From Staphylococcus phage vB_SauM-UFV_DC4, in sequence record MZ779063.1: a stretch of DNA of 64,000 nt; one strand, 5' to 3'. Under the pieces are notes generated by a model. That model did no database searches. It was given only the letters and a program-made list of their open reading frames with translations, and was not told where the DNA came from. The position numbers and the translations under genes were made by a program. Shown in pieces: positions 13,522 to 16,500 of the stretch (position 1 is its first letter; each line of letters starts with the position of its first letter).

Positions 13522-16500
13522 ATGGCAGAAGTTTTTAATAAAGATTTAAAAGAGATAGTTCACGATAATATGATGATTTATTTTAATGAAATTAACACTA
13601 ACCGTCAAATACCGGATATTAGAGATGGTTTGAAACCTATTCAAAGAAAAATATTATATATTATGTATAAAAACGGTTATAGATCCGATAAGAAATTTGC
13701 TAAATCAGCTAGAATAGCTGGAGACACAACTATATTACACCCACATAGTAATGATGGTATTTATGATTCTGCAGTTAATATGGTTACACCGTTTTCTATG
13801 AACCAACCATTAATTGAAGGACATGGTGCATTTGGTTCTATTACAGGAGCTTCTGCAGCCGCTTCACGTTATTGTTTAACTGGAGAACATATAGTTGATA
13901 TGAGTAATGGAGAACTTGTAAGAATTAAAGATATAGTACCTCATAGTGAATTAAATAGTGATAATAAAATTGATAAAGTTGTTATGGACTTTAGACGTAA
14001 ACAAGTTAAAGCTATTAAATTCTTTAATTCAGGTAAACACAATGTAATGGAATTAAATACTAATGCAGGTAAAACTATTAAAGCTACTCCAAATCATCCT
14101 TTATTAACCGTAATCAAACATCCAACAAAAGGATTAGATTTCAAATGGAAAACAATGGATGAAATTGAAAAAGGTGATTACTTAATCAACAGAACTATGA
14201 TTAAGAATGATCTTAAAGATTTTAGAAGTAAAAATCTTAATGAAAATGAAAAAGAAAGCTTTAAAAAATGGGGAGAAATTCTTTCTAATAAGTATTTCAA
14301 TAGAACTTTAGATCCTGAATATGGAGTATTAATGAGAAGTATTGAAACTGAAAAAAGCCTTCCTAATAAAGTATTAGAAGCATGTTTAGGATATAAGAGA
14401 GAATTCTTATTAGAATTATTTAAACAAGATGGATTTATTGTAGATAATATTGGTTTAGTTATCGAAAGTCATAGTAAAAGATTCTTGCAAGAAATAGCTA
14501 CTTTATTATCTCAATTTGGTATTTATTCTGTAATATCATTATTCAGTGATAGTGATTATAGATTACAAATTCAAGATATTCACTCACTTAAAAATTTATC
14601 TAAACACTTAATTAAAGATGATGATTTATTTAAAGATAAAATTGATGAAATTATTGATATGTATAGAAATTTAGAAAGTAATAATCCATATCAAGTTATT
14701 CCTTATTTAGATGAAGTATTAGATGAAAGAAAAATGACTTCTTATCTATATACAGAGTTATTTAATACTAGAAAGAATTTCTTAAATAACTTTAATTTAC
14801 TTGAGGAAGAATACGGTATTGAAATTGAAGAAAGAGATCATTTAATGTTATTTATCTCTAAATACTTAGATAACTATACTTATTTTGAACAAGTAGAAAG
14901 TATTGAAGAATTGGAAGAAGAGGAAGTAGTTTATTCTATTAAAGTTGATACAGAAGATCACTCATTTATGTCTGAAGGATTTATTCATCATAATACAGAA
15001 ATGAGATTAAATAAATTCTCAGAAAGAAATTTATTAGATAATATCAATGATAATGCAGTTAATATGGTTAAGAACTTTGATGGATCAATGTTAGAACCTT
15101 TAGTGTTACCTTCTAAATTACCTTATGTGTTAGTTAATGGTTCATTTGGTATTGGCGGTGGAGGACATAGATCTGATTTGCCACCACATTCTACTGAAGA
15201 TGTAATTAATATCACTATTGACAGAATTAAAAATCCTAATAAGAAATTAAAAACACTTATTAAAGATAATAAGTTTAAACCACAATTTCCTTATGGTGGA
15301 GAAGCATTTTGTGATGATTTAGAGAAATGTTATCGTACAGGTAAAGGTTCTATGTTATTAAGATCTGTAGTTGAAAAAGATGAAAGCAAAATGACTCTTA
15401 CAATTAAAGAAATTCCATATAACGTTACTTTGACTAGAGTTAAAGAAGCTATCAGAGAAGCACATAAAGAAGAACAATTAGATGGTCTTAAAAATATTAG
15501 TGACGGAACTCAAAACGGTGATGTTCGTTTAATTCTTCAATATACAAAATCTTCTGACTTAGACTTAGCATTGAATCAATTGTATAAAGTTAAGACAATT
15601 ACTTCTAGAGTTAACTTTGATGTTAAATTAGTAGATAATAATAAACTAGTAGAAACTAACTTATTAGGAATTATTGATAGATGGATTGAATTTAGACAAT
15701 CAACTGTAAAACGTTTTAAATCATTTAAAATTAAAGATTTAAGAAGTCGTATTCATATTATTGAAGGTCTATTAGTTGTATTAGATTCTAAGAATATCGA
15801 TGAATTAATTAAAATAGTTAAATCTGGTAAAGGTAAAGATGATATTATTGATGTAGTTAGTAAGAAATTTGGTATATCTCACGCACAAGCTTCTTATGTA
15901 GCTGAAATGAAACTATATACAATTAATAATCTTGAAATCAACAAATTGGTTGAAGAAAAGAAAGAAAAAGAAAAGATTGTTAATGAAGAAATGGTATACA
16001 TGAAAGATGTAAGTAAATTGAATGATCTTATTATTAATGAAATGAAAGAAATTAAGAAAGATAAAAATACACTTAAACCATCTAGATTAACTAAGTACTC
16101 TGATATTGATTTTAAAAATGATAATAAAGAATTATTAATTAAAGATGAAGATTTCATGTGTATCATTACTAGACAAAATAAGATTAAGAAAGTTAAAGAT
16201 GAAATTAGTAAACCTCAAAAGAGAAATGGTAAAGGTATCTCTATTGGTAAATTATCAGATGGTGATATTCCATTAAACATCTTTAATGCTAATAGTAAAG
16301 ATAACTTATTCTTAATTACTGATACAGGAAAAATATTCTATGATAAAGTTTATGAATTCCCTGAGATTAAATCATTAAATAACTTTGGTAAAGATATCAG
16401 TAGATTTGTTAAGAATGAAAAGATTATTAAAGCATTTACTTTAACTGATGAAGAATTTAAAGATCCAGATACAGCTTTTGTAGTAACGACAGCTTTAAAT

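Follow-up and report, generated by a model that had tools for sequence, protein, structure and literature searches.

The GyrA intein of Staphylococcus phage vB_SauM-UFV_DC4: intact splicing residues and a probable one-lobe endonuclease remnant

The gyrA gene of Staphylococcus phage vB_SauM-UFV_DC4 (DC4; sequence record MZ779063.1) carries an in-frame insert of 374 codons directly behind the codon of its catalytic tyrosine. We examined this insert in a stretch of 64,000 nucleotides (nt), in the following called the window, which represents nt 128,001-192,000 of DC4 (genome coordinate = window coordinate + 128,000, according to five genes in PMC10638138 Table 2). The insert is a class 1 intein at the gyrA-a site and is probably able to splice. 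We regard it as an ancestral, mostly vertically inherited element between Tyr117 and Thr492 whose endonuclease decayed after fixation.

The intein itself is already published for DC4 and its relatives and is annotated in GenBank. According to the DC4 paper there is "only one intein ... within gyrA", and LAGLIDADG_3 is the domain found in it (PMC10638138); in MarsHill gp228 an intein with a LAGLIDADG domain was placed between Y117 and T492 (Korn et al., bioRxiv 10.1101/2020.12.14.422802). In these two reports, a homing endonuclease was deduced from the InterPro/Pfam domain match. What is new here is a correction of that prediction: according to alignment and structure models, the domain appears to be a one-lobe remnant.

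The intein and its splicing residues

The precursor gene (window 13522..17076, + strand, stop codon included; UFVDC4_00132, nt 141522-145076 of DC4) is listed as a single open reading frame (ORF) of 1184 amino acids (aa) with one intein inside. Once the 374-aa insert is taken out, a GyrA of 810 aa is left. The host protein is recognizable by its topoisomerase IV/GyrA catalytic core, its C-terminal beta-pinwheel and the presence of a GyrB partner. Pfam DNA_topoisoIV matches the precursor in two stretches (2.2e-89), and there are five additional stretches of DNA_gyraseA_C. The partner gene gyrB (5435..7717, +; UFVDC4_00122) is uninterrupted and encodes 760 aa with matches to HATPase_c, DNA_gyraseB, Toprim and DNA_gyraseB_C. 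The scores of the NCBIfam GyrA and ParC equivalogs are below their cutoffs for the phage GyrA and leave it undecided whether "gyrase" or "topoisomerase IV-like" would be the better name.

The N-extein (aa 1-117; 13522..13872, +) ends with ...GASAAASRY and is 96–100% identical in nine related phages. Its last residue, Tyr117 (13870-13872, +), is the equivalent of the catalytic tyrosine. The C-extein (aa 492-1184; 14995..17076, +) starts with the +1 nucleophile Thr492 (TEMRLNKF...); this Thr and the TEMRL motif are invariant in the ten phage alleles, i.e. DC4 and the nine related phages. Between them lies the intein (13873..14994, +), which opens with CLTGEH and closes with FIHHN. A preliminary description of the window, made from the letters alone, had already given this position, the length of 374 aa, the Cys start and the HHN end followed by Thr, and the translation reproduces the coordinates exactly. 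It had also stated that GyrA is interrupted after AAASRY and resumes with TEMRLNKF. This agrees with the Pfam DNA_topoisoIV match, which restarts at residue 492 (profile position 92).

That the insert is an intein with recognizable splicing blocks, as had been proposed, is shown by Pfam, NCBIfam, PDB and fold evidence, with matches well outside what chance would give. Pfam Intein_splicing matches with an E value of 2.8e-20 (73 bits, cutoff 35.8), and NCBIfam intein_Nterm reaches 36.6 bits (cutoff 24.5). Among the solved structures of the PDB, the closest relative is the Mycobacterium xenopi (Mxe) GyrA intein (1AM2, E 2.7e-24), and the alignment covers both Hint halves; a DnaB intein follows with an E value of only 1.9e-4. 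The AlphaFold model of the intein has a mean predicted local distance difference test score (pLDDT) of 86.6 and a predicted template modelling (TM) score of 0.88. Foldseek ranks PI-PfuI, the TliVMA intein and the Mxe GyrA intein highest (the last with a TM score of 0.80, normalized to the target). PI-TkoII and PI-SceI, which are two-lobe endonucleases like PI-PfuI and the TliVMA intein, as well as the PhoVMA intein and many mini-inteins are also among the matches. An assembly artefact can be ruled out, since the same in-frame insert is found in ten independently sequenced genomes. A search of the six-frame translation of the window with a hidden Markov model of the intein family found no second intein.

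The splicing domain is split into two parts. The Hint N-lobe (intein aa 1-107; 13873..14193, +) contains block A with Cys1 and block B with Thr72-x-x-His75 and aligns to residues 3-115 of the Mxe GyrA intein. In the AlphaFold model it is all-beta, with a pLDDT mostly above 90. The Hint C-lobe (14866..14994, +) comprises block F (VYSIKVDTEDHSF) and block G (GFIHHN) and aligns to Mxe residues 155-199. In the model, residues 1-107 and 336-373 together form the Hint fold, again mostly with a pLDDT above 90. All motifs quoted in the preliminary description (TPNHP, VYSIKVD and FLLELFKQDGFI) are present, but VYSIKVD...DHSF, which had been labelled block G, is block F.

The residues that characterize class 1 inteins could all be located. 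The N-terminal nucleophile Cys1 (CLTGEH) is invariant in a 22-sequence family alignment (A2) as well as in the ten phage alleles. Block B reads Thr72-Pro-Asn-His75 and is aligned to T-A-N-H of the Mxe GyrA intein. Blocks F and G have the conserved Asp and His in VYSIKVDTEDHSF and the terminal His373-Asn374 in GFIHHN, followed by Thr+1. In A2, the invariant residues are C1, N74, H75 and P76 in the N-lobe, and V353, Y354, S355, V358, H363, F365, H373 and N374 in the C-lobe. The ten phage inteins differ at up to 36% of their residues, and C1, T72, N74, H75, the block F Asp and His, H373, N374 and T+1 are present and identical in all of them, as is the HHN end.

With these residues, the established class 1 pathway can be proposed for the phage protein. 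The 1184-aa precursor would be translated first, and Cys1 would undergo an N-S acyl shift. Thr+1 would then attack the thioester (transesterification), and Asn374 would cyclize with the help of His373, followed by an O-N shift. The 374-aa intein would thus be set free and an 810-aa GyrA be formed with a native ...SRY-TEMR... active site, which would pair with the GyrB encoded at 5435-7717. We infer that splicing does occur from the intact catalytic residues, the established mechanism and the purifying selection on the exteins, whose ratio of non-synonymous to synonymous substitution rates (dN/dS) is 0.02–0.15. Such strong selection is sensible only if a functional GyrA is produced. With the insert in place, the catalytic Tyr is cut off from the other parts of the active site, and since the exteins are nevertheless so constrained, the mature protein should be made by splicing.

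The insertion point is also the one used by the mycobacterial GyrA inteins, as had been proposed. The arrangement AAASRY|C...HHN|TEMRL is co-linear with NCBIfam GyrA_w_intein. Searched exhaustively with HMMER, a set of 1.84 billion representative proteins yielded 379 matches at E<=1e-3; this search replaced a word-indexed protein search, which had given two near-identical fragments only. At least 92 of the 150 closest relatives have the site RY|C...HN|TE-x-[RK]-[LMF] in GyrA, and most of the remainder are fragments or engineered constructs. The top HMMER matches are almost all GyrA inteins of this site, and the Mxe GyrA intein is the best match in the PDB search; the phage sequence is thus nearer to inteins of this site than to those of other sites. 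By these comparisons, the phage intein belongs to the gyrA-a allelic family, whose members are 150–528 aa long with a mode near 420.

With the Mxe GyrA mini-intein (1AM2, 4OZ6), the phage intein shares the host protein, the site after the catalytic Tyr, the Thr at +1 and the class 1 residues. However, Foldseek gives an identity of only 17–18% when gaps are counted over all 374 columns of its alignment. The Mxe GyrA intein (198 aa) has lost the whole endonuclease, whereas the phage intein (374 aa) keeps about half of it. The C-terminal end is HHN in the phage, SHN in Mxe GyrA and NHN or SHN in most family members. The phage protein is co-linear with NCBIfam NF038098 ("intein-containing DNA gyrase subunit A"), but its score of 531 is far below the cutoff of 1850. 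Finally, the mycobacterial gyrA-a inteins belong to actinobacterial hosts, while this one belongs to a phage of a low-GC Gram-positive bacterium.

A scan of contigs from named genomes gave 418 relatives of the intein. The best 80 of the 418 all have an identity of at most 40% and belong to Aquificota, Bacteroidota, Actinomycetota, Patescibacteria and archaea of several groups. Among these 80 there was no Staphylococcus and only one metagenome-assembled genome from Bacillota (Clostridiales, 23%). An origin of the intein from the host is not supported by this distribution. Ten close relatives in protein clusters are all metagenomic. Several metagenomic GyrA homologues (P0012, P0015, P0024, P0025 and P0044) carry two or three inteins, at gyrA-a and at upstream sites, so that GyrA is a multi-site intein target.

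The endonuclease domain

In the endonuclease region of canonical gyrA-a inteins, motif 1 (...LLGxL[IV]SEG...) is followed by a first alpha-beta-beta-alpha-beta-beta-alpha lobe, and motif 2 (...FLxxLFEGDG...) by the second one. As a positive control, we modelled a canonical 415-aa gyrA-a intein in the same way. In the control model (pLDDT 93.1) both lobes are complete, one spanning 119-195 and the other 216-291.

In the phage intein, motif 1 (block C) is present only as a remnant, ENEKESFKKWGEILSNKYF (14242..14298, +). A MAFFT alignment with canonical gyrA-a inteins shows that it is recognizable only as KKWGEILSNKY, with Asn139 in the position of the catalytic Glu and Lys in place of the next Gly. 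Across the ten phage alleles the catalytic position is occupied by Asn, Gln or His. In the AlphaFold model this remnant is a lone helix (124-142), followed by a coil (intein aa 143-164; 14299..14364, +) in place of the deleted first lobe. About 65–70 alignment columns are absent here in comparison to canonical family members. The coil has a pLDDT of 50–56, contains no beta strand of three or more residues and displays the highest dN/dS in the gene (0.47–0.71).

The second lobe (14365..14622, +) contains motif 2 (block E, FLLELFKQDGFI). It is modelled as a helix (172-186), two strands (188-190, 194-199), a helix (202-213), two further strands (220-223, 229-233) and a final helix (236-246). Motif 2 reads FLLELFKQDG, and its Asp186 is kept in all ten alleles, while the next Gly is replaced by Ser or Ala in Machias and SA1. 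Pfam LAGLIDADG_3 matches the intein with an E value of 1.7e-5 (25.4 bits, cutoff 22.5), in one partial stretch (intein residues 174-222, profile positions 2-53 of 82). Canonical members give a full-length stretch or two stretches, and the closest non-Staphylococcus relative gives none. A helical accessory region (intein aa 251-331; 14623..14865, +) connects the endonuclease lobe to the Hint C-lobe; it consists of helices in the AlphaFold model and is alignable with canonical gyrA-a inteins. The LAGLIDADG-like block had been named correctly as to its type in the preliminary description, but FLLELFKQDGFI is the second motif of the domain and not the first.

Two-motif LAGLIDADG enzymes are defined by two catalytic acids and a two-lobe DNA-binding saddle. 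In the phage intein we find Asp186 in motif 2 but Asn139 in motif 1, and lobe 2 (172-246) but only a low-confidence coil of 22 residues for lobe 1. As judged from alignment and model, the domain thus appears to lack both defining features, and the endonuclease is most likely inactive; the prediction is for absent activity or, at most, nicking. With the acid of motif 1 lost and lobe 1 deleted, the element is most likely unable to home by itself. The preliminary description had spoken of a LAGLIDADG intein at a classic homing site. The site is borne out; the active homing that this wording implies is not, as the endonuclease is a half-remnant and probably inactive.

A single-lobe nuclease acting as a homodimer would require a palindromic target. 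The reconstructed intein-less target of 60 bp, ACAGGAGCTTCTGCAGCCGCTTCACGTTAT|ACAGAAATGAGATTAAATAAATTCTCAGAA (30 + 30 bp around 13872|14995), is not palindromic. Its best centre has 7 of 11 symmetric positions and lies off the insertion point.

A comparable case is the archaeal PhoVMA intein, which has a degenerated LAGLIDADG domain that proved inactive in experiments; the homing-cycle model describes such a stage (PMC8966425). PhoVMA (7QST), a structural match to our model, resembles the phage intein in that it is fixed at its site and has a functional Hint domain together with an endonuclease that has lost catalytic residues and part of a LAGLIDADG element. It differs in its host protein and site (VMA-b) and in the type of decay: both lobes are kept, the acids are gone from both motifs and block E is truncated by one turn, whereas a whole lobe and one acidic residue are lost in the phage. 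Inactivity has been tested in PhoVMA, while we deduce it here. The active intein endonucleases PI-PfuI (1DQ3), PI-SceI (1VDE) and PI-TkoII (2CW7), which rank at the top of the Foldseek matches (E 1.8e-15 to 1.5e-9), likewise have a Hint domain split by a LAGLIDADG domain, but they possess two acidic LAGLIDADG helices and two beta-sheet lobes instead of one lobe and one acid.

Related phages and the genomic neighbourhood

We found the intein in all nine related phages in GenBank (PALS_2, S6, MarsHill, Madawaska, LY01, SA1, Machias, PB50 and AH12). The DNA identity of gyrA between DC4 and these Staphylococcus jumbo phages is 83–98%, and the ORF is intact in the ten genomes (in LY01 after exact removal of a second insertion, see below). 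The GenBank "intein" mat_peptide of MarsHill and Madawaska spans the same codons as in DC4 (nt 352-1473 of the coding sequence (CDS), Y117|C118...N491|T492), and that of Machias has the same start codon but is one codon shorter (CDS 352-1470). The GyrA inteins of MarsHill, Madawaska, Machias and PALS_2 are the same element as that of DC4, with an aa identity of 77.5–98.9% to the DC4 intein.

Intein-less alleles, which the preliminary description had suggested looking for in related phages, do exist. They occur only in more distant phages, namely AR9 and LPJP1, and none of the nine close relatives has one. The nearest intein-less homologue is that of Listeria phage LPJP1, where ...PAQMRY|TQMRLNKFSEE... 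forms one continuous stretch. The other is AR9 gp044, which is given as an intein-less homologue by Korn et al. (bioRxiv 10.1101/2020.12.14.422802). When IMG/VR was scanned with the spliced extein, no close relative came up, so this set of uncultivated viruses yielded no allele with an empty site.

A more distant homologue was found on a metagenomic contig of 10,350 bp and 25% GC (L010; Logan ERR13865851), with the syntenic order HNH gene, gyrA (4593-8114) and viral RNA polymerase (vRNAP) beta gene. Its exteins are 67–75% identical to those of the window and its intein 34%. The L010 intein shares the lobe-1 deletion and the unusual HHN end; in addition, the Asp of motif 2 is gone (LLDNYF). L010 belongs to an uncultivated phage that is related to the Staphylococcus jumbo phages at a greater distance.

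In deep comparisons by the Nei-Gojobori method, dN/dS is 0.2–0.3 for the intein and 0.06–0.15 for the exteins. Within the intein, the values lie between 0.10 and 0.33 for both Hint lobes, for lobe 2 and for the helical region (the latter 0.16–0.22). Synonymous divergence, measured as the fraction of identical codons at conserved degenerate residues, is equal for intein and exteins in nine of ten allele pairs. The GC content of the intein (24.4%) matches that of the window (24.1%). The truncation shared with L010, the equal synonymous divergence and the matching GC content together suggest that the truncated intein is old in this lineage and has been inherited mostly vertically. Horizontal exchange was not taken as the main explanation, since nine of the ten pairs are equal and only window-SA1 and MarsHill-SA1 differ between intein and exteins (p ~0.01 and ~0.006, uncorrected).

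LY01 (L002, OR836606.1) contains a second mobile element in gyrA. An insertion of 2000 bp (4744-6743) splits the intein-containing gene into ORFs of 920 and 273 aa; the corresponding empty site lies at gyrA nt 2743|2744, i.e. window 16264|16265. The insertion encodes a TnpB of 406 aa (Pfam OrfB_IS605, Cas12f1-like TNB, HTH_OrfB_IS605), and 563 non-coding nt lie in front of this gene. Both ends carry the 9-mer TTTGTTAAC, the junction has a 2-nt (TG) ambiguity, and the full ORF reappears when the insertion is removed exactly. Matches to the element occur at six places in LY01, a related transposase is found in Machias, and there is no copy in the window. The Rfam search gave nothing at the gathering threshold on the window and the LY01 locus, nor at E<=1 on the LY01 insertion, so that no RNA element goes with the intein. 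The insertion may be an IStron-like self-splicing element or a genuine gene split.

Several neighbouring genes deserve mention. A free-standing HNH homing endonuclease gene (11623-12054, +; Pfam HNH_3, NUMOD4 sub-threshold) lies 1.5 kb upstream of gyrA. A homologue with 43% identity is located upstream of gyrA in L010, and the MarsHill orthologue is annotated as HNH homing endonuclease. Further upstream (10206-11033, +), a protein with a metallo-beta-lactamase fold is encoded, RNase Z-like according to the MarsHill annotation. Its match to the Pfam anti-Pycsar family Apyc1 is sub-threshold (33 bits, cutoff 50), and it could be a candidate for a counter-defence enzyme that degrades cyclic nucleotides. 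Downstream of gyrA, a 677-aa ORF (17393-19426, +) without Pfam match represents the N-terminal part of the vRNAP beta subunit. In the ~2 kb that follow (19427-21613, +), a single ORF reaches 120 aa or more (19511-19939, 142 aa). The vRNAP beta gene is annotated as two to three exons in MarsHill, Machias and Madawaska, and with a homing endonuclease in MarsHill; the Rfam scan detected no intron in the window. The related phages S6, AR9 and PBS1 are reported to contain deoxyuridine DNA (dU-DNA).

Alternative explanations and significance

The history that we consider probable is the following. The Staphylococcus jumbo phages (S6, PALS_2, DC4, MarsHill, Machias, SA1 and others) would have inherited the intein from their common ancestor. 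Its endonuclease would once have spread the element to empty gyrA alleles, and decay would have followed with every known relative occupied, as expected from the homing-cycle model (PMC8966425). The phage intein would then be at the stage of degeneration after fixation, on its way to a mini-intein such as that of Mxe GyrA.

Several points weigh against this history. Lobe 2 and the helical region are under purifying selection (dN/dS 0.10–0.25), so the remnant is not drifting freely. Some nicking activity may be left, since all ten alleles keep Asp186. That lobe 1 is lost is deduced from an alignment and predicted structures. SA1 has exteins that are 95–98% identical to those of the window, closer than those of Machias, and yet its intein is the most divergent (64%). 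Between SA1 and the window, the identical-codon fraction is 0.675 for the intein and 0.763 for the exteins (Fisher p ~0.01, uncorrected, ten tests). This anomaly may reflect an old exchange of intein alleles or local variation in rate. Finally, the consulted passages of the two published reports describe no experiment on splicing or endonuclease activity of this intein. As for the selection on lobe 2 and the helical region, it is most simply explained by the need of the insert to fold in such a way that splicing of a needed enzyme is not blocked.

Another way to account for this selection is that the nuclease function is gone and the remnant has been co-opted, either as a scaffold that the Hint domain needs for splicing, in the sense of HINT-HEN mutualism, or as a conditional-splicing switch that times the phage gyrase. 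Such a mutualism has been described (PMC8966425). The dN/dS of lobe 2 and the helical region resembles that of the Hint lobes despite the lost nuclease features, and the truncated architecture is older than the split from the L010 lineage. As Cys1 adjoins the active-site Tyr, the unspliced precursor is necessarily inactive. However, we see no direct support for co-option, the same purifying selection is expected simply from the fact that misfolding of the insert would prevent an essential enzyme from being spliced, and mini-inteins at the same site (Mxe GyrA, 198 aa; family members of 150–270 aa) splice without such a domain. We therefore regard this alternative as unlikely. A broader version, in which the half-LAGLIDADG domain has been kept by selection since before the L010 split for a new role, be it as scaffold, as splicing switch or as dimeric single-lobe nuclease acting on the GyrA precursor dimer, appears slightly less likely still.

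Equally improbable, in our estimate, is a fully active mobile element whose LAGLIDADG domain cleaves intein-less gyrA and homes during co-infection. It would agree with the LAGLIDADG_3 score above threshold, the conservation of Asp186 in all alleles, a dN/dS of 0.1–0.3 instead of 1 in the endonuclease region, and the homing endonuclease predicted by Korn et al. from the domain match. The borderline synonymous excess of SA1 is confined to the intein and would be compatible with allele replacement. On the other hand, motif 1 is without its catalytic acid and variable at that position among the alleles, and the motif 2 Gly is replaced in Machias and SA1. In addition, the whole first DNA-binding lobe is absent from the alignment and from a confident model, while the canonical control has one. 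L010 has even lost the Asp of motif 2, and no empty sites are known among the close relatives, so there is nothing to home into.

It is very improbable that the insert no longer splices and that the 1184-aa protein is the mature form, or that gyrA is a pseudogene and the host gyrase is used: although no demonstration of splicing for this protein was found in the consulted passages of the two published reports, all class 1 catalytic residues are intact and invariant across the divergent alleles, and the ORF is intact in ten genomes. A protein left unspliced, with its catalytic Tyr separated from the other parts of the active site, could not function, and yet purifying selection on the exteins is strong.

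As a discovery, the intein itself is of little weight, and the refinement presented here is of modest value. In annotation, a mature GyrA of 810 aa should be given, and an active homing endonuclease should not be listed without a test. With the decayed endonuclease that we consider probable, the Staphylococcus jumbo phages would offer a clear phage example of the decay stage after fixation. The end-point at this site is represented by the Mxe GyrA mini-intein, a standard tool of protein engineering. The gyrA-a inteins, with lengths from ~150 to ~530 aa, would form a natural series for studying the loss of the endonuclease domain.

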